A stretch of 64,000 nt of DNA from Escherichia coli (GTDB lineage Bacteria > Pseudomonadota > Gammaproteobacteria > Enterobacterales > Enterobacteriaceae). Positions 3,640-64,000 of the stretch are shown piece after piece. Numbering within the stretch: position 1 is the stretch's first letter; every line of letters starts with the position of its first letter. Below the pieces are notes generated by a model, which worked only from the letters and a program-made list of their open reading frames with translations, was not told the DNA's origin and ran no database searches. Position numbers and translations under genes: made by a program. The stretch lies in assembly GCF_002854065.1 (NCBI RefSeq), contig NZ_CP024151.1; one strand, written 5' to 3'.

Positions 3640-4192
3640 AAAAAAATCCCCTGTGCACATTTTTAGTATGGTTTTAAAAATTAAACTATGGCGAAAAAAT
3701 TATCACCATGCAAATATGTAACAAAATATTTCTCGGTGATCTATGTTGTTGTTTTTATTTGAGGTTGTATATTTTCTAGTGTATTTGACTTTTCTTTCTT
3801 AAGTGTTATTTCTCGACCTTTATCACAGAACCATCTCCCTGGATATCCCCATAACATTGCATGAAAAGCAAGTTTTACCAATCTTGATTTTCAGTGTTAA
3901 ATAAGATTAATAACTGTAATTCTGCAAAAAAAAGAACACCATATGTAGTATGACTACGTATTCCACTCTGTTCGTTCACGGACTGGCATCGAAGTCTGAG
4001 GTGTACTGGCAATAGCGGATACAGTCATTTGTTCTTTTTTTAAGCATTCATCCGATGATACTTTTCCTGAATGCTACCGGAGTGGTATTCCCCTGCCGTG
4101 ATAGACTGGCCCCCTGAATCTCCAGACAACCAATATCACTTAAATAAGTGATAGTCTTAATACTAGTTTTTAGACTAGTCATTGGAGAGCAG

Positions 4193-6980: not shown

Positions 6981-7264
6981 CAGCGAGGCACCGGTAACGG
7001 ATTGTCAGTACCGAGGCTGTCCGCCCAGGCCTGTACAGCCTGATGGTCGATAACCTGTCCGGATGTCACATCGTCCAGGGCTTCCAGCGTCAGGCGATTA
7101 CGCTCCTCCTCCTGGGCAAGCCATGCAGAAAGCGCCTGTTTGATAATCCAGCCCCGGGACCGTTCCAGTCTGGCGGCCATCTGGTCGACTTTATCAGCCA
7201 TAGGTAATGGCACATGCGCAGTAATTACTTTTGTTACTTGTGCGGTATTGTTTTTCATTTGCAT
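6980..7264 (-). CDS. Type II antitoxin, ribbon-helix-helix (CopG-like)
   Basis: 94 aa immediately upstream of the toxin with 1-nt overlap; RHH-like segment RLERSRGWIIKQALSAWL; start could be the track M1 or the ATG 6 nt downstream. Confidence 0.7.
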   Translation of the reverse strand: MQMKNNTAQVTKVITAHVPLPMADKVDQMAARLERSRGWIIKQALSAWLAQEEERNRLTLEALDDVTSGQVIDHQAVQAWADSLGTDNPLPVPR

Positions 7265-7899
7265 ATCCGATTAGTTGTTAATCATATTTAATCATAGTGA
7301 TTACTTTCAGACGGAACAAGACAAATAATGCGCGTCAGCGCATGTAAGGCGGCATACGGTGGTTACATGTAGCACAGGAGTAAAACCGCCGAAGCCCGGC
7401 GTAAGCCGGTACGGACTGATAGATTTCACCTTACCCATCCCCAGCCCTGCCAGACCATACCCGCTTTCAGCCATGAGAGAGCTTCTGTGCGCGGTCGGAG
7501 TGGTCCCGACGAGGGTTTACCCGAAGTCGGGGCGTATCTCCGCGTTAGCGGGCCGTCAGGGCCGCTTACGAGCGTGTACTGAGAACTTCCAGCCAGAAGA
7601 CTGACAGCAATGATAATGTAGTTACAACATTCATAATTAAAAGCGACTCTGTTCCGGCCCGAAGGGCCGGGGCGGGGCCGCTTTTCAGTTATGAGGGAGG
7701 GGCTTTGTGGTTTCAGTTCTGCGCGGGACCGGGGTTTTCCTGGTGGTTGTATTTGAGTGTTGTAACTAAAATGGCTCCGGTCGGGGCCCGCCGCTTGCGG
7801 TGGGAGGTGCATATCTGTCTGTCCACAGGACAGGCAGTGAATAGGTTTTCTTTTTAAATGAATGTAGTTAAGTAGTTTAAAGGAGATATAAACAGGTGT

Positions 7900-42655: not shown

Positions 42656-43069
42656 AAGACAGTACCTTTTATATTCTGAAACAAGTGTTTTATTTCATTT
42701 ACTAATAGTTTGGTCTGAAAAAAGAAGAGCACCCCTAGCAGCGCCCCTAGGGGCATACTATAAAAAAACGCACGGCGCTGCTAGGGGCGGCCCTAATATA
42801 TCCAAATGTTTTTCATAAAATTTGTCAGTACTGACCCTAACAAGGGTCGCCATAGGGTCGCCATAGGGTCGTCAACGCCCCTATTTAATAATGTAAAATA
42901 AATTAAAATACATTATTTAAAACATAAGCTAATGATTCAAAAAGCAAATCAGCAAAAACTTGTTTTTGCGTGGGGTGTGGTGCTTTTGGTGGTGAGAACC
43001 ACCAACCTGTTGAGCCTTTTTGTGGAGTGGGTTAAATTATTTACGGATAAAGTCACCAGAGGTGGGAAA
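42656..43069 (+). other. oriT: oriT; nic site between 42978 and 42979 on the plus (transferred) strand
   Basis: Plus strand carries the F nic sequence TTTGCGTGGGGTGT^GGTGCTTT, inverted repeat GGTGGTGAGAACCACC (42988-43003), and GGGTCGCCATA direct repeats upstream. Confidence 0.85.
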
Positions 43070-45123: not shown

Positions 45124-45765
45124 GTTTTCAGCCCCCATCATCTGTTGAGTTTCGGGAGCCGCGGTTTTGACGTTTTGCGGGGACCTGCCTTTTGTTCCCT
45201 CCGGTATTCACCATCACCTTTTTGAGAACCTTCGCCGCAAGGGGCATCACTGCCACGGCCGGAAACGACTGTCCGGGGGCAGACCGCAAAAGTTTTTGCC
45301 TGCTTTTGAGCAAAAAGTTTTGCGGGATGTGCATTTCACCCCTGGACTGGCGGAGACGGTTGTGGCTGTCTATGCCCCCGGCGACAGGGGCTTAAACAGG
45401 TGAATGGCACCGGACACAACAACGGGCAGGGACCCGCCGCAACGACGTGAAGCGCGGTTTGCGAAACGGCGTTGCCCCTTACATCCCGGCGGCCTTTTGC
45501 CGGGATGCCGGGAGCGCAGGCCACGGCGCGACAGAGGCGGCGCGACCGGAACGGTCGCTGCAAGCCCGGGGTTTTCACGCATCGGACCGTAGCGACAGCC
45601 CGAAACCGCGCCAGCGGGTTCGGCGGAGACTGGCAGGTGCGCCAGCAGCTGCCTGTCGGAGTCGGGTCTGACGACCGGATGCCGCCAGGCAGCCGGGAGC
45701 CGAAGGTGCGCCCGGCAGACAGGACAACACTGCAGTAGTCAGAATCAGAGCAGGAAGAAAAAGAG
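45124..45765 (-). repeat. GC-rich leading-region repeat, copy 1 (Frpo/ssi-like candidate)
   Basis: ~640 bp nearly identical to 50461-51093 and, over its distal ~390 bp, to 53826-54433. Confidence 0.8.
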
Positions 45766-49690: not shown

Positions 49691-50438
<748 letters not shown>

Positions 50439-50460
50439 GATGTGCCTCCTTCTGTTGATG

Positions 50461-51093
50461 TTTTCAGCCCCCATCATCTTTTGAGTTTCGGGAGCCGCGG
50501 TTTTGACGTTTTGCGGGGACCTGCCTTTTGTTCCCTCCGGTATTCACCATCACCTTTTTGAGAACCTTCGCCGCAAGGGGCATCACTGCCACGGACGGAA
50601 ACGACTGTCCGGGGGCAGACCGCAAAAGTTTTTGCCTGCTTTTGGGCAAAAAGTTTTGCGGGATGTACATTTCACCCCTGGACTGGCGGAGACGGTTGTG
50701 GCTGTCTTTGCCCCCGGCGACAGGGGCTTAAACAGGTGAATGGCACCGGACAGAACAACGGGCAGGGACCCGCCGCAACGACGTGAAGCGCGGTTTGCGA
50801 AACGGCGTTGCCCCTTACATCCCGGCGGTCTTTTGCCGGGATGCCAGGAGCGCAGGCCACGGCGCGACAGAGGCGGCGCGACCGGAACGGTCGCTGCAAG
50901 CCAGGGGTTTTCACGCATCGGACCGTAGCGACAGCCCGAAACCGCGCCAGCGGGTTCGGCGGAGACTGGCAGGTGCGCCAGCAGCTGCCTGTCGGAGTCG
51001 GGCCTGACGACCGGATGCCGCCAGGCAGCCGGGAGCCGAAGGTGCGCCCGGCAGACAGGACAACACTGCAGTAGTCAGAATCAGAGCAGCAGG
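50461..51093 (-). repeat. GC-rich leading-region repeat, copy 2 (immediately upstream of ssb)
   Basis: Nearly identical to copy 1 with a few substitutions. Confidence 0.8.
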
Positions 51094-51104
51094 AAAAAGA
51101 AGAA

Positions 51105-51152
51105 CAGTAGCAGTAGCAGTAGCAGTAGCAGTAGCAGTAGCAGTAGCAGTAG
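51105..51152. repeat. Hexanucleotide tandem repeat (CAGTAG)8
   Basis: Eight perfect CAGTAG units adjacent to repeat copy 2. Confidence 0.9.
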
Positions 51153-51330
51153 CAGGAACAACAACATCAGTAACAGACAAATGACAGGCATGAAGAAACA
51201 GAAGCCCCCATCAGAACGTCCGCGTAATGAAAGGGGCGGCGCGTGAGCGCGGCCCCTTTCAGCACCACCGGCGCGCGTTTTTTCCCGGCGCGGGCAGACA
51301 GGCATTTATCCTCCCGCCGGCCCTGTGTCA

Positions 51331-51894
51331 TCAGGCACGCAGACGAATAATCATCGTCGGGACATCGGTATAAGCAAACGTGCCGCGCGGCAGCTCCTCG
51401 CGGACGTCAGAAAACGGTAACAGCTTCTCCTGCTGGCGTGGTCCGTTGAGACAGACGGCGACCAGCACGCCACCCGGACGCAACAGGGAAAAGGCCCGCA
51501 GGATATGCCGGATATCCTGCCCGTGGCTGAACGGCGGATTCATGATAACCCGGCTGTAATACTGCACCGGCTGCCATTCCATGAAGTCGCCACACTGAAC
51601 CCTGACACCGTTAAAATTTTCCCGCAGATACCGGACCAGCCCGCTGTTGATTTCCACCGCATCACACATGGCCCCCGGCGCGGTATCCCGAATCGCCCGC
51701 AGTATGGCCCCGGTGCCGGCAGAGGGTTCCAGAATGTGATCACGGTTGCTGATCTCCGCCAGCATCACCAGGCGATCACAGACCGGGGCAGGAGTCACAA
51801 AAAGCTGAGATTCAGCCCGGATTTCAGCAACCGGCGCGGCGTTATCCAGCCTTGCGCGCATCAGCCGGATACGTTCTCTTAACTGACTGTGCAT
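51331..51894 (-). CDS. SAM-dependent methyltransferase (putative N6-adenine class, NPPF motif)
   Basis: 187 aa with SAM-binding motif EPSAGTGAIL followed by IMNPPF. Confidence 0.65.
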   Translation of the reverse strand: MHSQLRERIRLMRARLDNAAPVAEIRAESQLFVTPAPVCDRLVMLAEISNRDHILEPSAGTGAILRAIRDTAPGAMCDAVEINSGLVRYLRENFNGVRVQCGDFMEWQPVQYYSRVIMNPPFSHGQDIRHILRAFSLLRPGGVLVAVCLNGPRQQEKLLPFSDVREELPRGTFAYTDVPTMIIRLRA

Positions 51895-51941
51895 ATCATT
51901 ATCTCCGTCATCCCCCGGGGATTTTCCCGGGGGGATATACC

Positions 51942-53303
51942 TTATTTCTGTGGGATTTCCGTGATTTTCATGTCGGAGATATACACATTCACCAGGCGGA
52001 AATTATTGTCCATTGTGCGGCGGTACCGGTATGCCCCGTGGTCTTCTGCTTCTGCCACACTGCGCACGGCCTTACAGTCCCGGGGCAGGGCGGCCCACTG
52101 TGCCTTTGTCATTTCCCGGAAACCTTCCCCCGGATAGTTGACTACCGGCGGACGCTTCGCGGCCTGACTGGCGACGGCAGCCTCTTCTGCCGATGGTGCT
52201 TTGTAGTCCGTGATGCGATCGGGCGTCACTTTCATCGTGCCGCTGTACCCGAGAAAACTGTAATTTGGCGTTGTGACTGAACTCACCGCCCCGTTGCTTT
52301 TGTTCACACGGATGATGGTCAGCCACTCGCCCCGGCTGAAAACCTGTCCGCCCGGCTCAAAATCCTGTGTCCGGGTAACCACGCCGCCGCTTTCGTCCAG
52401 CATGGCACGCTCATAGATCAGGCGGTTCTGATAGTGGTTAACCCAGCGTTGTTGATGCTGAATCTGCCGTTCATGACAGCGGATCGCAATTTCGCGGGCC
52501 TGCTCCGTGGTGATGATGTCATCATCCAGGGCCGACCATAACGATCGACTTCCTTCATACTGGCTTTTTTCTGCCGGGCGCGGATACGTATCCAGCGGGA
52601 AACAGGCGCTGATATGGTCATGACTGCTGATGAGTTTTGCCATATTCAGATCCAGCGATTCAGCCCGCCACATCGTCAGATATTTCTGCGACTGCGCGAT
52701 GGTCTTTTCAGCCTTGCGCAAATCAGCTTCGATTTTTTTGATACGACGCCAGCGAACGTCCGGACGTTCTTTATACTTCGCGTGAAGCAGTGCCGACCGC
52801 GCCCGCTCTTCCCAGTATTCCGCACGTTCAAAGAGCATCACGGCTCGTTTCATGCCGTTTTCAATACGCTGCGCATCACGACGGGCGCGGCGTTCGCTGT
52901 GATGCCCCACAAGAATGGGCTGACCGGGCGGGATCATCGCGGCCAGTCTTTCCACTTCATCAAGTGCCTGTGCGGATTCACTGGCCCGCTTTCCGCTGTA
53001 TCCGGTAAACCGCTCCGCCCGTGCTTCCTGACGTTCAGCGAGCGTGCTGTCTTCATCCTCAATCTCTCCGGCAAGTGAGAGGAGCACGTCTTCCCGGCCC
53101 GGTGTCCAGGCTGGCGCGACAAACAGCGCCTGTTTGGGTGCCCAGCGAAAACCGGCATCATGCACTTTTTTATACGTCTCCGGGTCGAGGCGTGACGCGG
53201 CATACAGGCGCAGTTTGTTGTCATCCGGTGAGTAGGTCGCGCGGTACATCTGCACAGGGCTGGCGGCTTCCGGGGCGGTCATGGTGATTGCTGCTAATGT
53301 CAT
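51942..53303 (-). CDS. Conserved leading-region protein of unknown function (453 aa, DUF3560-like)
   Basis: ATG preceded by AAGGAGA; charged helical central region, no recognisable catalytic motif. Confidence 0.5.
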   Translation of the reverse strand: MTLAAITMTAPEAASPVQMYRATYSPDDNKLRLYAASRLDPETYKKVHDAGFRWAPKQALFVAPAWTPGREDVLLSLAGEIEDEDSTLAERQEARAERFTGYSGKRASESAQALDEVERLAAMIPPGQPILVGHHSERRARRDAQRIENGMKRAVMLFERAEYWEERARSALLHAKYKERPDVRWRRIKKIEADLRKAEKTIAQSQKYLTMWRAESLDLNMAKLISSHDHISACFPLDTYPRPAEKSQYEGSRSLWSALDDDIITTEQAREIAIRCHERQIQHQQRWVNHYQNRLIYERAMLDESGGVVTRTQDFEPGGQVFSRGEWLTIIRVNKSNGAVSSVTTPNYSFLGYSGTMKVTPDRITDYKAPSAEEAAVASQAAKRPPVVNYPGEGFREMTKAQWAALPRDCKAVRSVAEAEDHGAYRYRRTMDNNFRLVNVYISDMKITEIPQK

Positions 53304-53354
53304 AAAATGTTCTCCTTCCGTCTGTTGCCGCCCCTCGCGGGGCGGCTCACCTCA

Positions 53355-53585
53355 TCAGTTAAAAGCGCGTTTCAGTTCGAGTGTGCGGAGCACCTGCCCG
53401 AAGGCCGTGTTTTTCATGGCGGGGATGTGTACACCACGCCCCCGGTGAAAACTCCGGGCAATGTGTCGCCCGAAGGCTTTCAGCACGGGGTCAATTTCCG
53501 GCGCGGGGATGTCTTCGCGTCTGAAACGGGGATGACGGCGGGGCTTTACAGCCGCTGCGGAAGGTGAAACAATACTTACTGTCAT
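53355..53585 (-). CDS. Hypothetical small basic protein (76 aa)
   Basis: ATG with AAGGAG RBS, downstream of repeat copy 3. Confidence 0.45.
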   Translation of the reverse strand: MTVSIVSPSAAAVKPRRHPRFRREDIPAPEIDPVLKAFGRHIARSFHRGRGVHIPAMKNTAFGQVLRTLELKRAFN

Positions 53586-53825
53586 AAATGAAACTCCTTA
53601 TGACAAATTGGTTAACAATGCCGTCAAAATTGGTTGTGCAATTCTTACGGCGTGGATTAAGCAGGTCCCTGACCTGCTTTTTTCATATCTGCGTCTGACG
53701 TTCTACGGTGTTTTCCTCCTTCTGTTCCTGCGTTCTCATTACCTGCCAGCCGGATGACTGACAGAACAAATAAATGCATATTGCCGGAGCCTGAAATAAA
53801 TCCTGATTTTTAAAGAACATCACCC

Positions 53826-54433
53826 GTTGAGTTTCGGGAGCCGCGGTTTTGACGTTTCGCGGGAACCTGCTGCTGTATTCCCTGTGGTATGAACTTCACC
53901 CGTTTGAGAACCTTCGCCGCAAGGGGCATCACTGCCACGGCCTGACGCACCTGTCCTGGGCAGAACGCAAAATTTTTTACCGGGTTTTGGGTAAAAAATT
54001 TTGTGGGCTGTTCATTTACCCTGGACAGTCAGTGCGGCAGGTTGTGGCTGTATCAGCCCCCGGCGACAGGGACTCATACGGGTGTGTGGCACCGGCAGGC
54101 AATGAGCAGGGACCCGCCGCAACGACGGAGAGCGCGTGCGCGAAACGGCGTTGCCCCTTACATCCCGGCGGCCTTTTGCCGGGATGCCGGGAGCGCAGGC
54201 CACGGCGCGACAAGGGTGGCGCGACCGGAACGGTCGCTGCAAGCCCGGGGTTTTCACGCATCGGACCGTAGCGACAGCCCGAAACCGCGCCAGCGGGTTC
54301 GGCGGAGACTGGCGGGTGCGCCAGCAGCTGCCTGTCGGAGTCGGGCCTGACGACCGGATGCCGCCAGGCAGCCGGGAGCCGAAGGTGCGCCCGGCAGACA
54401 GAACAACACTGCAGTAGTCAGAATCAGAGCAGC
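53826..54433 (-). repeat. GC-rich leading-region repeat, copy 3 (diverged in proximal third)
   Basis: Distal ~390 bp closely match copies 1 and 2; first ~220 bp diverge after the shared GTTGAGTTTCGGGAGCCGCGGTTTTGACGTTT. Confidence 0.75.
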
Positions 54434-54622
54434 AGATAAAGGAACAACAACATCAGGAACAGTTCCATAACATAAGAAAGAAACACTCCTGAGTCAGACA
54501 CATCACAGACGGGAAGGGTAACGGGCGACGCGCCAGCGTGGCCCGCTTCCCTTCCGGCAGGCGTCAGCCTGCCAGGGGTTTTCGCGCGGACTGACAGGCG
54601 GCCTCCACCGCCTGCCCCTGTA

Positions 54623-54814
54623 TCACCTGTTTCTGCTACCCTGTAAGATGTAGTGACCGCCCAGGAAAACCGCCTGCTGATTCGCCACAAAATCGCAGAT
54701 TTCATCAACAATCTGCGCGGTGGTGAGCGGTTTCTGCCCCATTTCACGACGCCGCGCATTAATCACGGCCCTGTAATTACGCAGAATTTCGCGGGTTTCT
54801 GTGCTGATATTCAT
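54623..54814 (-). CDS. Hypothetical small protein (63 aa)
   Basis: ATG overlapping the stop of the upstream 144 aa gene (ATGA), suggesting coupling. Confidence 0.45.
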   Translation of the reverse strand: MNISTETREILRNYRAVINARRREMGQKPLTTAQIVDEICDFVANQQAVFLGGHYILQGSRNR

Positions 54815-55245
54815 GACATCGTCTCCCCGTCCAGCGCCTGTAACACAACGTCCATTGCTTCGCGTTCCTCCCTGACGAATGCGTCACCGTCGCCCCCGTT
54901 CTCACTCCCGACGGCATACAGGCGCTTCATTTCACTGCCTGCCAGCGCCATCACTTTTTCCAGCATCACCGCCGGGACTGTCACCTGACGGCTGGCGCGC
55001 TTTTCTTCCATCAGTTCATGAACAACGCCGTGAACAACGCCGTGAACAACGCTGACATCCGCACCATATTCAAAGGCATCGTCCAGCCGCTGCATGACGG
55101 TTTCCAGCTCATCGTCTGTCAGACTCCAGTCCTGGGCTATGTGACGCACATCCCCACGGGTCAGCACCACGGCAAAAACGCATTCACTGTCCGGCACGTC
55201 TGTATCCAGCACTTCGCGGATAATTTCTTTAACAGTACAGTACAT
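54811..55245 (-). CDS. Conserved leading-region protein, paralog B (144 aa, DUF1380-like)
   Basis: AAGGAGA RBS; shares N-terminal MY-T-E--RE, S/LTD-E--TV and RQVTVPA segments with the 56961-57395 ORF. Confidence 0.55.
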   Translation of the reverse strand: MYCTVKEIIREVLDTDVPDSECVFAVVLTRGDVRHIAQDWSLTDDELETVMQRLDDAFEYGADVSVVHGVVHGVVHELMEEKRASRQVTVPAVMLEKVMALAGSEMKRLYAVGSENGGDGDAFVREEREAMDVVLQALDGETMS

Positions 55246-55291
55246 GTTCTCGTCTCCTTTACAGGGGCGGCATTGCCGCCCCGTCCGTTAA

Positions 55292-55717
55292 TCAGTCCAG
55301 AGCCGCGTAAATCGCGTTGCATTCGGGGTGAAATTCGATGTGACGCCACAACTGCGCATCGCGCATCCGGTAAAGCTGGGTCAGTCCTGCATCCCCGCTG
55401 TCGTGGTACAGCCACAACTGGCGGTTAATCACAAGGGAGGTCAGGATGATGCCTGCGGCATCAGCACTCACGGTACGGTCAAACCAGTTTGCACCGTTCA
55501 CCATGTGGAAACGGTCGCCATCCGGCATCATGTAACCGCCACCGTCCGGCAGGCGGATGAAGTGCCAGAAGCCTCCCTGATATTCCGGCATCATTTTTTG
55601 CGCCAGCGCGTACACATACGCCTCGGCATACAGAAAATCGTTGCCAAACAGATACGGCAGAAAGGAGAGACGGTCGCACTCTTCAACATTCAGAGTGACA
55701 GGTTTCGCATATTGCAT
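55292..55717 (-). CDS. klcA: Antirestriction protein, KlcA/ArdB family
   Basis: 141 aa; [18 protein letters not shown] and NAIYAALD segments parallel KlcA of IncP; GGAGGA RBS. Confidence 0.85.
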
Positions 55718-56133
55718 GATGTTTTCCTCCGTTGTTCACATATTCCGCGACACCGGGCGGTGCCGTGCCTCCATAAAAGCCGGGCGAACAGGCGGGGATG
55801 CAGGGGCGCAAGGGAAGCCGCAGCCTGACGCACACGGCTGACGGGAGTTGCAGGGTGAGACCGCGAAATCTGAGCGGGTGAACGACCGGAAAATCACGGC
55901 AGACGGGAAGGAGGGACCGGGTGACCGCAGCGGCGAAGCGTACCCTTGCATCAACGCCAGCCCGGCTAAGATGGAGGCACGGCACAGCCCGCACACGACG
56001 CTGAGGCCACATAACTGAAAAACCACAAGGCCATGCCCTGCATGGCCGGGTAAAGCGGAGCCGGCGGCGACTTCCTTTGTGCTCTGTCCGGGGACCGGCA
56101 GGAAAAAGGCGGGGATTTACCCCGCCAGTGTCA

Positions 56134-56910
56134 TCATTTCCGGATTTTTGCCAGGGCATCCGCCATGCTGCGGATTTCGGTCCGGGCTTCCCGGACCACC
56201 TCCCGCAGAACACCACGGTCAAACCAGCGGCGGGGCGGTTCATCCGGTATACGCAGCACATCGCAGGCCAGCCCACTGGACAGGATATGCTCAATACACT
56301 CACTGACCAGATACATTTCCACCGACGAAAAACGTGCTCCCCGGTTCACGATGGCATCGAGCACCACGGGCAGGTTTTCGTCATCTTCATCGAGCCAGCA
56401 GGGGTGATCGCTTTCCTTCACGACCAGGCGAAAGCGGCGCGTCTGGCGGGTCAGCAACGTCTGACCGGTGGTGGTCAGCGCCGCACGGATACGCCGCGCA
56501 TCTTCTGCCACCTGGTAACAGATGCTTCGTACCGCATCGTGCACCGCATCAAGAACAGCCTTGATTTCGTCTTCGGTCAGCCATTCTCCGGCATACGGGA
56601 AAGACACCTGCGTTCCGTCTGCCGGAAGTACCGGCAGCGACTGCCACTGACTGCCGGACAGTACCAGTTCCGCCCCGGTTCCGGTCAGTCTCTGAATGGC
56701 GGAGGCCAGGAGCGGCGGCAGTACGCCGCCGTGACGGTTGATAAGTAACGTCGCCAGCCGGGGCGCATCCAGCCGCACGTAAATGCTGATCCAGCCCGGA
56801 TAGTTCGGATTTCGCTGGTCAACATCCGTCTCTTCCGGCCAGTCCTGCGCCAGCAGCAGGTTACGGGCGTGACGACAAATCAGTGCGTTCAGCGTGCTGT
56901 TTTCGTTCAT
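56134..56910 (-). CDS. Hypothetical leading-region protein (258 aa from ATG 56910; track ORF extends to 56961)
   Basis: Internal [11 protein letters not shown] preceded by AGGGAGA; no recognisable motif. Confidence 0.5.
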
Positions 56911-56960
56911 GATTAAGCGTTCTCCCTGTATCGCCGCCCGCAGGGCAGGCGGCGATAACA

Positions 56961-57395
56961 TCAGTTGTTTTCGTGTGTGTTGTTTTTCAGCAGGGTGCGG
57001 GCCTGATTAACCACCGCCTGACGGCGGGTAACGCATTCCGGGACGGCGAGGCCGTTATCACGGGCGGCCCACTCACGTTTCCACAGTGCCTGTTCAGCGG
57101 TCTGAATCAGGGACGCCAGCAGTTCAGCAGGGACGGTCACCTGGCGGTTTTCGCTCACGTTGCTGATAATCTCCATCACCGCGGCGGAAGAAATACCGGA
57201 TTCAGTCCGCTGGTCTTCCGGGATGTCCTCCATGCGCGCCAGGACGGTCCTGATTTCATGATCGGTCAGAGAAATTTCCATACCGTCAGCCAGTGCCTGA
57301 ATCTCTTCCGGGGACCAGATAACCAGCATCAGCGGCGCGTCTCCCGGATACTTTGCTGCCAGCTCCCGGCATAGCGTTTCGCATGTTCCGTACAT
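56961..57395 (-). CDS. Conserved leading-region protein, paralog A (144 aa, DUF1380-like)
   Basis: AAGGAGA RBS; paralogous to the 54811-55245 ORF. Confidence 0.55.
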
Positions 57396-57408
57396 TCTCG
57401 TCTCCTTC

Positions 57409-57630
57409 TCAATCTTTGAAGCAGGAATCCAGTTCCAGAATTTCGGTATACGCCTCCATAAACAGGCGATTGGCGCGATACAGCGTCTGGCGTGTCAGGC
57501 GTTCAACAAGCACATCGGAATCAAAGCGACAGCGATGCTCCATATCGTTCAGCCTAGCCCGAAGGTCACACATGGTGTTGGCCACCTCCGCCACGTCGGC
57601 GCGAAGTTTTTCGTGTCCGGCATAGTTCAT
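57409..57630 (-). CDS. Hypothetical small protein (73 aa)
   Basis: ATG directly after the methyltransferase stop codon. Confidence 0.4.
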   Translation of the reverse strand: MNYAGHEKLRADVAEVANTMCDLRARLNDMEHRCRFDSDVLVERLTRQTLYRANRLFMEAYTEILELDSCFKD

Positions 57631-58314
57631 TTACGCAGCCTCCGGTTCAAACCAGTTATCATTCGCGGCCCCCTGCTGCATGGCCCGTTGCACGGCGGCC
57701 AGTCGTTGCTGTCCGGCACGGTGATACTGTTCAAGCAGCTCGATACCGATATACCGGCGTCCGGACTGGAGGGCGGCCACGCAGGTTGAGCCGCTGCCTG
57801 CAAACGGGTCCAGCACAATCGCGTTCGGATGTGTGAAGCTCTCAATCAGTGGTTGCAGGCTGGTAACGGGCTTTTCCGTCGGGTGATGGCGGTTGCCCGA
57901 ATATTTCCAGCCCAGCACGTCGGGTAATGGCTTCGGAGGCAGCGCCGGACGGCCTTTTGCCAGGATATAGGCGCATTCGTGACGGTACGCGACATACGCA
58001 GATTTGGATGTGTAGCTTTTGGTGAACACAAGGTGCCCTACAACGCTGAATCCGGCGCGTTTCCAGGCTGCCATAAAGCGGTCAATACGGTTCCAGCCAT
58101 AGAAACTCACCATCAGCGCATCTTTTTTTAGTACGCGGTACATCTCATTACTGGCAGGTTGCAGCCAGTCATCGTTAACGTCACCGGCAATGGTGCGCCC
58201 GGAACGGTCACGAAAACCAACGAGATATGGTGGGTCGGTTAAGATGAAATCAATGGCGTTATCAGGAATCGTGGCCATAACACGCACGCAGTCACCCAGG
58301 ATAAAACGGGACAT
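57631..58314 (-). CDS. DNA methyltransferase, beta-class N6-adenine/N4-cytosine type (DPPY motif)
   Basis: 227 aa with FILTDPPY near the N-terminus and DPFAGSGSTCVAA SAM-binding motif near the C-terminus; GAGGAGGA RBS. Confidence 0.8.
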   Translation of the reverse strand: MSRFILGDCVRVMATIPDNAIDFILTDPPYLVGFRDRSGRTIAGDVNDDWLQPASNEMYRVLKKDALMVSFYGWNRIDRFMAAWKRAGFSVVGHLVFTKSYTSKSAYVAYRHECAYILAKGRPALPPKPLPDVLGWKYSGNRHHPTEKPVTSLQPLIESFTHPNAIVLDPFAGSGSTCVAALQSGRRYIGIELLEQYHRAGQQRLAAVQRAMQQGAANDNWFEPEAA

Positions 58315-58699
58315 AACAGCACTCCTCCTCTTACAGAGGGCACCGGGAGGGCGCCCCTGTGGCGCCCGTTCTCCGCTGCCTGTGGGCTGTTCACCGCGTC
58401 CGGTAACGGGTCAGGCCGACCGTGGAATACCGCAGCCGTCGTCTTTCTGACGGCGAGGATATGCCGCGAAAGCGGCTTGAAGGGCATTCATCAGAAAAGG
58501 GCGACAGGCTGGCGTACACTGTCACCGACGCCAGCCAGGAGCGGTAAAAGCGCCCGTCCCGTGCCCGGCCGGACACGGGACACTGACCACAGGCAGCGTT
58601 CCTGCCGCGCCGCGTCAGCCGGCGCAGTAAAAAGAGGAGCACGGCGACATCCTTTGTCGGAAAAGAAACGGGCGGTTGCCCGCCCGTCTCCGTCATACT

Positions 58700-59626
58700 T
58701 CATCCGCCATAATGCGCCACCTTGTCGACTATCCACGCAGGTCCGGTGACTTCCGGCAGCTCATCGTCATCTGTCGGGGAAGACCATTCAAGTTCCCCCC
58801 ACAGCACATCAACGAGCTCTCCACGCTCATACAACTGCCAGCCACAGAAATTGCAGCCTTGTTCGGCGTACCAGTGCTCCAGCGTGCAGCTGAAACGGCG
58901 GCTTAATTCTGCAACAACGTCGCTTTCCGGCTGACACCACGGCGTGTCGAAATCCACCTGAATGAAGTTTTCTCCCTGACTGCTGATATTCAGGTCATAC
59001 CCACAAGGCCACTTCACGCCATACCGTTCGGTATACCAGTGATATGCAGAAGGAACACCGTTCAGAACACCACCGTTAAAGCCATTCACTTCAACATCCA
59101 GGCGGGTCGGCAGAACCGTCAGCAGGTCAAACGGCATGGTTTTTTCCGGCAGCACGTTGTCACACAGACGGTTCCACCACACCGATACATCCTCGTTACC
59201 CCAGATGTCACACCAGTCACCTCTTTTTGCGGTGAAATGCACAGTGATGATTTCCCTGACATCATCCGGTAATCCTTCCCAGCGACGCTGTCCAGTACCG
59301 CTCTGCAGCCAGAGTTTATGCAGCATCAGGCAGTTTTGCTCATCCAGCAGTACACCGTCCTGCAGGTATGTCAGCCAGCGGGTGAACGCGATATTCTCCG
59401 GCGATACAACGCCACGCCCGGCAGCCGTCAGTCCGGGGCATGGTTCAAACCGCACATCTTCAGTGGTCTGCAGAAGTCCGGCACTTCCGGCCAGAAACAG
59501 CTGAATACCTTCATTTGTGGCGCGGCGATAAAGCGGTGTGACTGCACCGCTGGCCAGTCGTTTAATCTCAGCAATCTGTGCCGGTTCACCAGAAAAATGC
59601 ATACGATTTGAGCACCAGTTTGGCAT
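58700..59626 (-). CDS. Hypothetical Cys/Trp-rich leading-region protein (308 aa from ATG 59626; track ORF extends to 59671)
   Basis: Internal ATG MPNWCSNRMHF preceded by GAGAGGAGAA; multiple C-x-x-C/W-C motifs. Confidence 0.55.
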   Translation of the reverse strand: MPNWCSNRMHFSGEPAQIAEIKRLASGAVTPLYRRATNEGIQLFLAGSAGLLQTTEDVRFEPCPGLTAAGRGVVSPENIAFTRWLTYLQDGVLLDEQNCLMLHKLWLQSGTGQRRWEGLPDDVREIITVHFTAKRGDWCDIWGNEDVSVWWNRLCDNVLPEKTMPFDLLTVLPTRLDVEVNGFNGGVLNGVPSAYHWYTERYGVKWPCGYDLNISSQGENFIQVDFDTPWCQPESDVVAELSRRFSCTLEHWYAEQGCNFCGWQLYERGELVDVLWGELEWSSPTDDDELPEVTGPAWIVDKVAHYGG

Positions 59627-59980
59627 GGGAATTCTCCTCTCACATGCGGCCTCTATCAGGCCGTGCCGCACCTGTAACCGGGCGACCGCATACGAATGCA
59701 GGTGCGGCCCCGAAGCCGCAGCGCGTGGAGGAGGAACGACGAAACGTGACCGGGTGAGGAGGCCGGCGACAGCGACACACTTGCATCGGATGCAGCCCGG
59801 TTAACGTGCCGGCACGGCCTGGGTAACCAGGTATTTTATTCACAGAACCGTGCGCAAAATGCTGTGGATAAGCTGGACACAGCAGTCCACAGCAGGCATA
59901 CAGCCACACCCTCAGAGAATTGAGCGTTTTTTAGTCACAATAATGACATTTGACTGTGTGTGGATTCAGTTATTAGAATG

Positions 59981-59996
59981 CTGTATATACATACAG
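59981..59996 (+). promoter_or_regulatory. LexA box (SOS operator) upstream of impC
   Basis: CTGTATATACATACAG fits CTGT-N8-ACAG, ~25 bp upstream of the impC ATG. Confidence 0.7.
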
Positions 59997-60019
59997 CAAT
60001 AGAAAAGGGAGATGAGAAC

Positions 60020-60268
60020 ATGATCCGCATTGAAATTCTTTTCGACCGCCAGAGCACAAAAAACCTCAAATCAGGCACACTTCAGGCGCTACAGAATGAA
60101 ATCGAACAACGTCTGAAACCACACTCCCCGGAAATCTGGCTGCGTATAGACCAGGGCAGCGCCCCGTCTGTATCTGTCACAGGAGCCCGCAACGACAAGG
60201 ATAAAGAACGTATCATGTCTCTGCTGGAAGAAATCTGGCAGGACGACAGCTGGCTGCCTGCAGCATGA
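60020..60268 (+). CDS. impC: ImpC (DinI-like SOS modulator)
   Basis: MIRIEILFDRQSTKNLKSGTLQALQNEIEQRLKPHSPEIWLRIDQGSAP...EIWQDDSWLPAA, DinI-family pattern. Confidence 0.85.
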   Translation: MIRIEILFDRQSTKNLKSGTLQALQNEIEQRLKPHSPEIWLRIDQGSAPSVSVTGARNDKDKERIMSLLEEIWQDDSWLPAA

Positions 60269-60702
60269 GTACCGTTTATCACCGTCCGGCTGACCCTTCA
60301 GGCGATGACAGTTACGTGCGACCGTTGTTTGCCGATCGTTGCCAGGCCGGTTTTCCTTCGCCTGCCACTGATTATGCTGAGCAGGAACTGGATCTGAACA
60401 GCTATTGCATCAGCAGACCTGCAGCCACCTTCTTTCTGCGCGCCAGCGGTGAATCGATGAACCAGGCTGGCGTGCAGAATGGTGATCTGCTGGTAGTGGA
60501 CAGGGCCGAGAAACCACAACACGGGGACATCGTTATCGCTGAGATCGACGGTGAGTTCACCGTCAAACGACTGCTGTTGCGCCCACGCCCGGCACTGGAG
60601 CCGGTTTCAGACAGCCCGGAATTTCGCACACTGTATCCGGAAAACATCTGTATTTTTGGTGTTGTCACTCACGTGATACACAGGACGCGGGAGTTACGCT
60701 GA
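60265..60702 (+). CDS. impA: ImpA (UmuD/MucA-like, S24 peptidase fold)
   Basis: 145 aa LexA/UmuD-like; start overlaps impC stop (ATGA). Confidence 0.9.
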   Translation: MSTVYHRPADPSGDDSYVRPLFADRCQAGFPSPATDYAEQELDLNSYCISRPAATFFLRASGESMNQAGVQNGDLLVVDRAEKPQHGDIVIAEIDGEFTVKRLLLRPRPALEPVSDSPEFRTLYPENICIFGVVTHVIHRTRELR

Positions 60703-61972
60703 TGTTTGCACTGGCTGATATCAACAGTTTCTACGCCTCATGTGAAAAAGTTTTCCGCCCGGACCTTCGCAACGAACCGGTCATCGTACTCAGCAATAAC
60801 GATGGCTGTGTGATCGCGCGCAGCCGGAGGCAAAAGCCCTTGGCATCAGAATGGGGCAGCCCTGGTTTCAGGTGAGACAGATGCGCCTGGAGAAGAAAAT
60901 ACATGTATTTTCCAGCAATTATGCGCTGTACCACAGCATGAGCCAACGGGTCATGGCTGTTCTGGAGTCGCTTTCTCCCGCAGTTGAGCCCTACTCAATT
61001 GATGAAATGTTCATTGATTTGCGGGGGATAAATCATTGCATCTCTCCGGAGGTTTTTGGTCATCAGCTCAGGGAACAGGTAAAGAGCTGGACAGGACTCA
61101 CCATGGGGGTGGGCATTGCGCCTACAAAAACGCTGGCTAAAAGTGCACAGTGGGCAACAAAGCAATGGCCACAGTTTTCCGGTGTGGTCGCGCTGGAGGC
61201 AGAAAACCGTAATCGGATCTTGAAGCTACTGGGGCTGCAGCCAGTTGGTGAGGTCTGGGGAGTAGGACGCAGACTGACGGAAAAGCTGAATGCGCTGGGT
61301 ATTAACACAGCACTGCAGCTGGCGCAGGCTAACACGGCATTCATCCGGAAAAACTTCAGCGTCATTCTTGAGCGTACGGTACGCGAACTCAACGGCGAGT
61401 CCTGCATATCCCTGGAAGAAGCACCACCGGCAAAACAGCAGATTGTCTGTAGTCGCAGTTTTGGTGAACGAATCACAGACAAAGATGCCATGCACCAGGC
61501 TGTTGTTCAGTATGCAGAGCGGGCCGCAGAGAAACTACGTGGGGAGCGTCAGTATTGCCGGCAGGTGACGACATTTGTACGGACATCCCCCTTTGCAGTA
61601 AAAGAACCCTGTTACAGCAATGCCGCTGTGGAAAAGCTTCCATTACCCACACAGGACAGCCGGGACATTATTGCCGCAGCATGCAGAGCGTTAAACCATG
61701 TCTGGCGTGAAGGGTACCGCTATATGAAGGCAGGAGTCATGCTGGCTGATTTCACACCATCGGGTATAGCGCAGCCGGGATTATTTGATGAGATCCAGCC
61801 CCGTAAAAACAGCGAAAAGTTAATGAAAACACTCGATGAACTGAACCAGTCTGGAAAAGGGAAAGTGTGGTTTGCGGGGCGAGGAACCGCCCCTGAATGG
61901 CAAATGAAACGGGAAATGCTCTCGCCTTCGTATACAACACAATGGACTGAGATCCCCATTGCTTCATTCTGA
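60702..61972 (+). pseudogene. impB: ImpB (UmuC/MucB-like Y-family polymerase), apparent -1 nt frameshift near 60822-60826
   Basis: N-terminal 40 codons (MFALADINSFYASCEKVFRPDL...VIARS) in frame 0 then stop at ~60878; remainder (EAKALGIRMGQPWFQ... 373 aa) continues in another frame. Confidence 0.8.
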
Positions 61973-61976
61973 TATA

Positions 61977-62405
61977 TCAGAATAATTTTTGCATTTTAAG
62001 GCGCACATCATTCATTGCCTCCTGCACCGAATCAGTAGCAGAAGGAGGCATTTTTTCAGCAGATTGCAAAGCACCGAGTTCAGTCAACACAGCTCTGATA
62101 TCGGCCTGAGAAGGCTTCCATCCTGTCGTCTGACTGAGTAAGGTTACAACCTGATCTGCTGAAAACTCCTCGCTCAAAATGGCAGTCAGCAATACAGGCA
62201 GGCGAGGATCAAGTTGGTGTAACGCCATTCCAGAAATAAATGCATTCCGGAACAGCTCACCACGCTCAGAACGCGGAACGGACTCTATCGCTTCCAAAGC
62301 TTGAAAGTCTGCAGCTTTTTCCGGATGCAGATAAAGTGTGAATTTTTTCCTTTTCCGTTCATCGTCCACAATATTACTCCTCTTTGAAAGCCGCGATAGC
62401 TTCAA
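61977..62405 (-). CDS. parR: ParR/StbB centromere-binding adaptor (type II partition)
   Basis: ESVPRSERGELFRNAFISGMALHQLDPRLPVLLTAILSEEF parallels R1 ParR; directly downstream of parM; start uncertain. Confidence 0.75.
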   Translation of the reverse strand: MKLSRLSKRSNIVDDERKRKKFTLYLHPEKAADFQALEAIESVPRSERGELFRNAFISGMALHQLDPRLPVLLTAILSEEFSADQVVTLLSQTTGWKPSQADIRAVLTELGALQSAEKMPPSATDSVQEAMNDVRLKMQKLF

Positions 62406-63345
62406 CCAGTGCTGTCTGTGGCGACTCCATCATCACTACTTTTTGCCCAAGATGGTGCCATGCCGTTTTTATCGAATCATAGATCAACGGGGCCCCACCA
62501 CCGACAACATAAACACGATTCACATGATGAAAATCACCGAGCTCATTGACTACTTGCTCCCCCAGACTGGCAATAGCCCCCTCAATGGTATTAAGGACCA
62601 GATCAGTTTTTGTTTCGTCATTTATAACCTGCCGAACAAAGTCCGGGTCATTACGACGTTTAATCAATTCATCTGCAACGAGGAAACTGGTATCACTGGA
62701 TGCCATGCGCAATGCACTCATTGCAGCTTTCGTAACTGAAGACACACCAATGCCAGAATTACCATGAATGGCACTTACAGAGTCAAATTGACCAACGATA
62801 ACACCAACATCAAGCGTAGTGCCGCCAATATCAACTACCAGCGATTTTTCGAACTGACCAACTTTATCCATGACCAGACGAGAAAACACAGCTGGCAATG
62901 ATTCAGGCATCACATCAACGTGTTCAATGGTGAAAACATCGCCTTTATTAAGACGAATCGGCCTCATTAAATTCTCAATTTTACGCTGAATGTTGAGTTC
63001 ATTTTTTTGACACTCTTTCGTGTAGAACTCACTGATAGGCAAAGTCACAGTCAATGATACAGGCTGAGGCGCTAATCCACTATTCAGTAAAGCGTGATGC
63101 ACAGCTAACAGGTTAACATCCGTATATTGATACTCAATATGAGTCGTAAGAATAGATTGGTTGCTAACTTCATCATACGTGTATTTTTTACCATCCAGTT
63201 CATAGTTAAATGTCTGGCGAATCCCTAACCCGTCAACCTTCCATCCATGACGAAATGAGTTTTGCGACAACGACTTACAGATTTTCCCATTGTCATTCCA
63301 TGCCAACTTGATTGTTGTTGAACCATCATCGCAGTATACGTTCAT
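62374..63345 (-). CDS. parM: ParM/StbA actin-like segregation ATPase
   Basis: 323 aa MNVYCDDGSTTIKLAW... with DIGGTT and VVGGGA motifs. Confidence 0.9.
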   Translation of the reverse strand: MNVYCDDGSTTIKLAWNDNGKICKSLSQNSFRHGWKVDGLGIRQTFNYELDGKKYTYDEVSNQSILTTHIEYQYTDVNLLAVHHALLNSGLAPQPVSLTVTLPISEFYTKECQKNELNIQRKIENLMRPIRLNKGDVFTIEHVDVMPESLPAVFSRLVMDKVGQFEKSLVVDIGGTTLDVGVIVGQFDSVSAIHGNSGIGVSSVTKAAMSALRMASSDTSFLVADELIKRRNDPDFVRQVINDETKTDLVLNTIEGAIASLGEQVVNELGDFHHVNRVYVVGGGAPLIYDSIKTAWHHLGQKVVMMESPQTALVEAIAAFKEE

Positions 63346-63349
63346 CTAT

Positions 63350-63570
63350 AGCCCCTTAAATACTCAATCTGAGTAAATCACTGTTTCTGGTTGCAAGGTA
63401 ATACTCAATTTGAGCACTATCATAGTTATGAAATCACAAAACACAAGTAATATTTATTACATCATATGACATACTTCATATTTCATACTTCATAAATATG
63501 AATGCATGTTGACACATCAGGTTACCGTGTCAAAATATCATCATACTTCACACATCACATTTATGAGGTT
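63350..63570. other. Candidate partition site / promoter region with short direct repeats
   Basis: AATACTCAAT(C/T)TGAG twice and CATACTTCATA twice, between divergent parM and the ParA-like gene. Confidence 0.3.
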
Positions 63571-63572
63571 GC

Positions 63573-64000
63573 AATGATTACTGTAGTTGGTGGGAACAAA
63601 GGTGGTTCAGGGAAAACTACCATTGCATCAAACCTGGCTATTGCTCTCGCAAATAAAGGAAGGGAAGTCTGCCTGTTAAACGGAGATCTACAACGAACAG
63701 CCGCAAAACATCATGCGGAACGAGAAGCTGCAGGACTGTTACCAGCAATAACCCTTGTTGAGAAATTTGATAACCTGACACAAACACTACAGGCTCTGAA
63801 TGAAAAGTTCGATGATGTAATAGTGGATGTCGCAGGAAGAAACTCAAAGGAATTCATAACGAGTGGAGTTGTCGCACATCAAATAATTGCGCCACTACAG
63901 TGTTCTCAACCAGATCTGGATACTCTTACAGAACTAGAACAACAGATAGACGCAATGCGTAACCTTAACCCGGAACTTAAGGTTTATTGTTTACAAAGTA
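63573..64000 (+). CDS. ParA/MinD-family P-loop ATPase, N-terminal part (runs past window end)
   Basis: ATG at 63573 after GAGG; deviant Walker A GGNKGGSGKTT; no in-frame stop before the window end. Confidence 0.65.

Follow-up and report, generated by a model that had tools for sequence, protein, structure and literature searches.

A probable class 2 single-stranded DNA promoter upstream of klcA in a plasmid leading region of Escherichia coli

Single-stranded promoters of plasmid leading regions

The Frpo elements, also designated ssi1-3 or ssp1, are leading-region hairpins of the transferred strand (T-strand) that mimic a sigma-70 promoter (Masai and Arai 1997; Couturier et al. 2023, PMC9849209); their activity is restricted to single-stranded DNA (ssDNA), and the genes that they serve are transcribed toward oriT (PMC9849209). 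More recently, RNA-seq of fresh transconjugants was reported to reveal the induction of six leading-region operons of pESBL, with a large ssDNA stem-loop carrying -35 and -10 boxes predicted before each operon and all six starts mapped by 5' RACE (Wen et al., NAR 2025, PMC12672017). In that paper, the hairpins 5' of klcA and ardA are termed class 2 and stated to be conserved in F, and class 2 starts are reported from 5' RACE in pESBL and from RNA-seq in F, with activity specific to ssDNA.

In F, the same element was named ssp2 in a preprint (Fraikin 2026, 10.64898/2026.01.09.698686), according to which it sits between yffB and yfgB and drives yfgB. Complementary-strand synthesis was found to stall at the end of the ssp2 stem until the stall is relieved by UvrD; deletion of ssp2 lowers transfer into restricting hosts and quickens conversion at yfgB (94 s vs 162 s), and rifampicin leaves the delay in place. 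According to the same preprint, the two classes act differently on conversion in F, which ssp2 blocks and which class 1 transcripts seem to assist by priming. A third study found the element independently upstream of ardB in F and named it Frpo3 (bioRxiv 10.1101/2025.04.03.647016), so that class 2, ssp2 and Frpo3 are three names of one element.

The DNA analysed here, referred to as the window, is a stretch of 64,000 nt from E. coli (contig NZ_CP024151.1 of RefSeq assembly GCF_002854065.1), and its 416-bp spacer at 55718-56133 is very probably a class 2 ssDNA promoter (ssp2/Frpo3) of IncF/IncI-type leading regions. It resembles the published copies in its position between yffB and klcA/ardB, in its location on the transferred strand and in its long hairpin with reconstituted promoter boxes. 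The spacer is a further copy of an already known element, described by three groups in 2025-2026, from which it differs in nothing of substance, and the biology set out below does not go beyond those papers. What is added to them is the covariation among 22 copies, the invariant TANNRT pattern of the -10 hexamer, a spacer of unequal length on the two arms (15 vs 19 nt), the conserved apical loop, and the use of the element in further plasmids of Enterobacterales, where it precedes methylase, DUF1281 and yffB-like genes. Such a promoter allows an incoming resistance plasmid to make anti-restriction protein before it becomes double-stranded, and the roadblock described for F holds back strand conversion and lengthens this single-stranded period (10.64898/2026.01.09.698686). 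Standard annotation leaves the segment blank, which is why its recognition matters for the annotation of leading regions.

Position and fold of the klcA-upstream spacer

The F oriT nick sequence GCGTGGGGTGTGGTGCTTT (GCGTGGGGTGT/GGTGCTTT) has one exact match in the window, on the + strand at 42968-42986. During F transfer the nicked strand exits 5' first. Since the nick sequence lies on the + strand, it is this strand that is transferred, with the leading region lying above 42979; all leading-region genes in the window are on the - strand, and the incoming + strand is therefore their template. The spacer thus lies on the transferred strand, in the leading region, upstream of and co-oriented with the klcA homologue.

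The first-pass annotation had described about 415 bp of very GC-rich DNA lacking a convincing ORF between the klcA-like gene and the 258-aa gene. The gap measures exactly 416 bp, from the klcA start codon (55717) to the yffB stop codon (56134); in 200-nt windows its GC content is 0.61-0.67, as compared with about 0.55 in the flanking genes, and it holds no credible ORF. The klcA/ardB homologue (Table 1), which identical plasmids and pESBL carry under the annotation 'antirestriction protein' (WP_001198928.1), would be the first gene driven by the promoter hairpin. The yffB homologue is a 777-bp hypothetical protein gene in the existing annotation, and both yffB primers of the ssp2 preprint map within it with two mismatches each.

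Table 1. Features of the spacer, its flanking genes and the Frpo-type repeats of the window.
Feature	Position	Strand	Detail
Three Frpo/ssp1-type repeats	45124-45760, 50460-51096, 53806-54439		Match F regions upstream of ygeA and ssb
klcA/ardB (F yfgB) homologue	55292..55717	-	141-aa ORF; Pfam PF03230 Antirestrict, E 1.5e-26
Leader, hairpin base to klcA start codon	55718..55753	-	Read from sequence
Shine-Dalgarno GGAGG in klcA leader	55726-55730		CCTCC on + strand; 8 nt before ATG at 55717
Portable module common to klcA-upstream and ardA-upstream pESBL copies	55735..56078	+	Four-way alignment
Long imperfect hairpin, transferred strand as ssDNA	55754..55991	+	MFE -70.5 kcal/mol, z -5.67
5' arm of promoter stem (putative template strand)	55759..55806	+	Contains invariant GCCGTGCC (55762-55769)
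3x3 internal loop	AAA 55775-55777 (5' arm) opposite AAG 55968-55970	+	Unpaired in MFE and centroid structures
Apical stem-loop CCGC-GAAATCTGA-GCGG	55861..55877	+	Conserved 9-nt loop
-35-like hexamer TTGCAT (putative non-template strand of stem)	55946..55951	+	TTGCAT in 17/22 copies
-10 hexamer TAAGAT, 3' arm	55967..55972	+	Fits TANNRT
Terminator-like hairpin GGCCATGCAGGGCATGGCC, then TTGTGGTTTT, inside shared module	56029..56047	-	Consensus scan
Flank motif AAAGCGGAGCCGGCGGCGAC..TCCTT	56052..56077	+	20 invariant columns in or near motif in nine flanks otherwise 43% identical
Terminator-like hairpin GGCGGGGTAAATCCCCGCC, then TTTTTCC, directly after yffB stop	56108..56126	-	Consensus scan and both folds
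yffB homologue, last gene of upstream operon	56134..56910	-	258-aa ORF

Among the options raised at first pass, the single-strand promoter is the one borne out, both by the comparison with F, in which the orthologous yffB-yfgB spacer is 97% identical, and by a hairpin with promoter hexamers on the transferred strand. The spacer is also nearly identical to the pESBL-EA11 spacers upstream of klcA and ardA, and a four-way alignment is near-invariant over 55735-56078; in the pESBL ardA copy, similarity starts at TCACAT (55735) and stops after TTCCTT (about 56078). Copies of the spacer with 90-100% identity are very common, occurring in at least 5000 PLSDB plasmids and in 3699 of 5426 complete E. 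coli genomes, with the segment blank in nearly all of the RefSeq records listed. Its likeness to Frpo/ssp1 (T-strand location, mimicry of a sigma-70 promoter and, by analogy, activity as ssDNA only) does not extend to detectable sequence similarity: the best blastn E-values against the three Frpo-type repeats are 0.09-0.3, and a repeat finder shows no relation either, in line with the earlier statement that the three large repeats are not matched. These repeats are of the Frpo1/Frpo2 type, being 84-98% identical to F overall, with 97-98% for the region upstream of ygeA and 90-94% for that upstream of ssb; the plasmid of the window carries three such copies, as against two in F.

Folded as ssDNA, the + strand of the whole 416-nt spacer reaches -103 kcal/mol (z -4.4; 0 of 100 shuffles as good), and the hairpin core 55745-55998 gives -70.5 kcal/mol by itself, a value equalled by none of 200 shuffles (z -5.7). 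A sliding fold of 300-nt pieces over the 64 kb (2549 windows) places the hairpin locus fifth by energy (-80.2 kcal/mol), a rank exceeded only by the three repeats of Frpo type and by a single other spacer of the leading region. The inverted repeats described as many and short at first pass are mainly one long imperfect hairpin, accompanied by two small G+C hairpins; the first-pass description is accurate throughout. The arms of the long hairpin were recovered by self-blastn as a 32-nt inverted repeat (55754-55785 vs 55960-55991). Its base consists of 15 pairs, GTGCCGTGCCTCCAT with ATGGAGGCACGGCAC, and includes GCCGTGCC, which pairs with GGCACGGC at 55976-55983 and is invariant in 22 of 22 copies. 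The base is followed by the 3x3 internal loop, a helix of eight G+C-rich pairs, an asymmetric interior region of 7 nt on the 3' arm vs 11 nt on the 5' arm, and a helix in which TTGCAT is paired with ATGCAG.

The 3' arm carries a promoter that points to the stem base and out along the 5' flank, toward klcA. The hexamers and the start site were assigned here from sequence, and the published boxes may differ. In the -35-like hexamer, which agrees with TTGACA at only three of six positions, the first three bases, TTG, are retained by 21 of the 22 copies. The -10 hexamer occurs in six variants among the 22 copies, all of them TANNRT with T-12, A-11 and T-7 invariant; in the window copy T-12, A-8 and T-7 are paired, and A-11, A-10 and G-9 lie unpaired in the 3x3 loop, which is also open in the 22-copy consensus structure even as its sequences vary among copies. 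The two hexamers are 15 nt apart in the window and in 20 of the 22 copies (20 nt in the other two), outside the usual range of 16-18, and the template arm offers 19 nt against these 15 of the non-template arm. The predicted +1 is template T55766, 7 nt past the -10 hexamer, which would give a 49-nt leader with GGAGG positioned ahead of the ATG as listed in Table 1. A scan for sigma-70 promoters of the duplex type called no site in the spacer; read as duplex, the klcA-directed strand is CTGCAT-N19-TTTTAT, which lacks A-11.

Two terminator-like hairpins lie on the - strand between the yffB stop and the long hairpin. The one directly after yffB is outside the module common to the klcA and ardA copies and, from its form, would mark the end of the upstream operon. 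The other is kept in both pESBL copies, and its role as a terminator is likewise putative; terminator-like sites called by the consensus scan are overall no commoner than in shuffles.

Conservation among copies and competing readings

A KlcA-based scan with one genome per species returned only near-identical copies, some of them in implausible hosts, and was useless for covariation; the divergent copies came through a match in E. coli plasmid ET76 (67% identity), which led to a diverged branch occurring in another 4139 plasmids, the majority of them from Klebsiella and others from Enterobacter, Citrobacter, Serratia, Yersinia and Pantoea. Copies were located by nhmmer, 22 of them were aligned (71% mean column identity), and the consensus structure was derived with RNAalifold. 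In this structure 94.9% of cells form standard pairs, as compared with 32-45% when the partners are slid by 1-3 columns; changes on both sides occur in 21 of 48 pairs, and the covariation score was reached by 0 of 500 shuffles. The apical loop (55865-55873) reads GAA[A/T]NNTGA in all 22 copies and its closing stem covaries (CG/GC, columns 123/137), which suggests a sequence-specific ssDNA contact, possibly with a host protein. Taken together, the alignment indicates that the stem is under selection and that promoter-like bases are conserved on the would-be non-template arm.

In each of the 18 copies for which a downstream gene is annotated, the GCCGTGCC block lies 37-49 nt upstream of a co-oriented start codon, and at least five families are represented among these genes (klcA, ardA, DNA methylase, DUF1281 and yffB-like, plus a hypothetical gene). 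Such a pattern would be expected if a portable promoter were read on the + strand. The flank motif has one exact match in the window, 60-85 nt beyond the hairpin base, and occurs beside copies that follow a yffB-like gene.

The structured RNA that the first-pass annotation had also considered would be an intercistronic or 5'-UTR element on the - strand transcript from yffB to klcA, controlling processing, stability or translation. The - strand RNA of the spacer does fold well (-181 kcal/mol, z -3.05), and the compensatory changes are symmetric, with 19 G-T and 15 A-C wobbles, counts so similar that they favour neither strand and do not tell which one folds. Such a transcript would nevertheless have to pass both terminator-like hairpins, with their T-tracts, before reaching the hairpin, and the promoter's own transcript would not contain it, because the predicted start lies in the stem base. 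A search with the Rfam 15 covariance models at a permissive threshold over 50000-64000 found no family matching 55718-56133 at E <= 1. The bases that do not vary belong to a -10 element of the opposite strand, set in a conserved mismatch, and this mismatch together with TANNRT makes sense only as DNA; moreover, the same module precedes unrelated genes at a fixed distance, and the published 5' RACE and deletion data from pESBL and F place a promoter here. An RNA function is consequently regarded as highly improbable. Very little credence is likewise given to the idea that the hairpin is chiefly an ssi site, which recruits RNA polymerase or the primosome to prime the complementary strand and yields expression as a by-product. 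Early conversion downstream of the ssp1/Frpo promoters is indeed reported to be transcription-dependent (10.64898/2026.01.09.698686), but downstream of ssp2 in F conversion is delayed rather than advanced, and the effects of ssp2 deletion and of rifampicin cited above run against a priming role; no primosome-type motif was found in the segment, in which it was looked for without a search model.

The probability that the gap hides a small protein-coding gene, or holds nothing but operon-end terminators and GC-rich filler, is considered close to negligible. It does contain ORFs of 56, 96 and 206 aa, and a few records label related copies 'hypothetical protein'. Several frames are, however, open together on both strands, as expected at 66% GC, and the open frames differ among homologues, in which small insertions and deletions differing in length (e.g. 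1 nt and 3-8 nt) would disrupt a frame; the open frames of the gap have no Pfam match, and most RefSeq records leave the segment blank. The small-ORF idea was dropped on the grounds that the frames are not conserved among homologues and belong to no Pfam family. Filler is ruled out by the covariation of paired columns, which neither a coding frame nor filler predicts. The two outcomes that would have spoken against the first-pass proposal are thus not encountered: the structure is kept with compensatory changes, and no conserved small protein-coding gene is present.

Proposed mechanism and related hairpins

The class 2 promoter reading suggests the following course of events. During conjugation, the + strand would enter the recipient 5' first from the nick at about 42978, and the segment would follow some 12.8 kb later. 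Before its complement is made, 55754-55991 would snap back into a stem of about 238 nt, of which the base-proximal 45 bp or so would mimic a duplex sigma-70 promoter, with the 3' arm as non-template and the 5' arm as template strand. Positions -11 to -9 would lie in the permanent 3x3 mismatch, so that the -10 element would already be open, and the four extra template-arm bases in the spacer may, speculatively, offset the short 15-nt spacing. RNA polymerase would start near T55766, exit via the stem base along the single strand and transcribe klcA together with the genes that follow, so that anti-restriction protein would be made within minutes of entry. Once the complement is synthesized, the hairpin could no longer form and the promoter would presumably be switched off; in the duplex the 3'-arm hexamers would be directed away from klcA, their 15-nt spacing would be unfavourable and the -10 element would be closed. 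The window copy keeps the whole stem, and by analogy with F the same hairpin may stall complementary-strand synthesis until UvrD unwinds it, prolonging the single-stranded phase downstream.

A shorter hairpin at 59657-59821 (+), upstream of the DUF1281 gene 58700-59671, has a folding energy of -50 kcal/mol (z -4.5). Its arms align with those of the class 2 promoter (TTGCAT, 15 nt, TAACGT and a GCCGTGCC/GGCACGGC base; nhmmer E 3e-8 for the 3' arm), and it shares GCCGTGCC, CCGGGCGA and ATGCAGG on one arm and CTTGCATC, GCCCGG, TAAnnT and GGCACGGC on the other with the klcA-upstream segment. It resembles a class 2 promoter stem that lacks the distal domain, and comparable 'mini' copies were observed in Yersinia ruckeri pYR4 (about 7204-7350).

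The occurrence of the promoter stem alone, before the DUF1281-methylase operon and in pYR4, raises the tentative and rather doubtful possibility that the class 2 element is modular. It would then combine a promoter stem of about 45 bp, which may comprise GCCGTGCC, the -10 loop, the GCCGGGC helix, the bulged spacer and TTGCAT, with a separable distal domain of about 150 nt (55807-55939). This domain, which carries the invariant apical loop GAAWNNTGA, would not belong to the promoter but, jointly with the flank motif 56052-56077, would turn ssp2 into a replication roadblock or a host-factor binding site. The class 3 promoter (ssp3), which lies 5' of M.EcoGIX, is also described as a leading-region T-strand hairpin (Wen et al. 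2025, PMC12672017). Published ssp3 is of equal strength and has no roadblock activity. The hairpin at 59657-59821 may or may not be this element; if it is, the roadblock would map to the distal domain and classes 2 and 3 would form one family.

A further hairpin, at 58326-58625 (+), ranks fourth in stability among the 300-nt ssDNA folds of the window (-87 kcal/mol; for the region 58300-58720, z is -5.6) and is 96% identical to F. It overlaps an annotated hypothetical ORF of 101-103 aa (58391-58696), which may be spurious, just upstream of the DNA methylase gene. The hairpin represents either the class 3 promoter located 5' of M.EcoGIX or one that has not been described.

Several observations concern the surroundings of the element and its occurrence elsewhere. 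The only significant Rfam match in 50000-64000 is AS-pc01 (antisense RNA to pHK01_035) at 53580-53682 (+; 91 bits, E 1.5e-15, above the gathering score); it adjoins the third of the Frpo-type repeats, and its end is formed by a terminator-like hairpin (53659-53679). Within the DUF1380 gene, the 15-bp unit GAACAACGCCGTGAA stands in tandem at 55018-55050 (-), where VVHGVVHGVVH is encoded. In plasmid p4_1_1.1, which is identical in other respects, a difference of 15 bp lies somewhere from the DUF3560 gene to the spacer and the DUF1380 gene is 12 bp shorter, which points to copy-number variation of the GAACAACGCCGTGAA repeat. Contigs with a 95-100% identical klcA and hairpin (L005, L007, L008-L010 and L013) are filed under Streptomyces, Oscillospiraceae, Oscillibacter and Collinsella, where they most likely represent contamination by, or mis-binning of, enterobacterial plasmids. 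Finally, the non-mobilizable Yersinia pestis plasmid pMT1 carries two full class-2-type hairpins (1311-1554 and 3865-4100), upstream of ardA and of a DNA methylase gene, which appear to be relics of a conjugative leading region.
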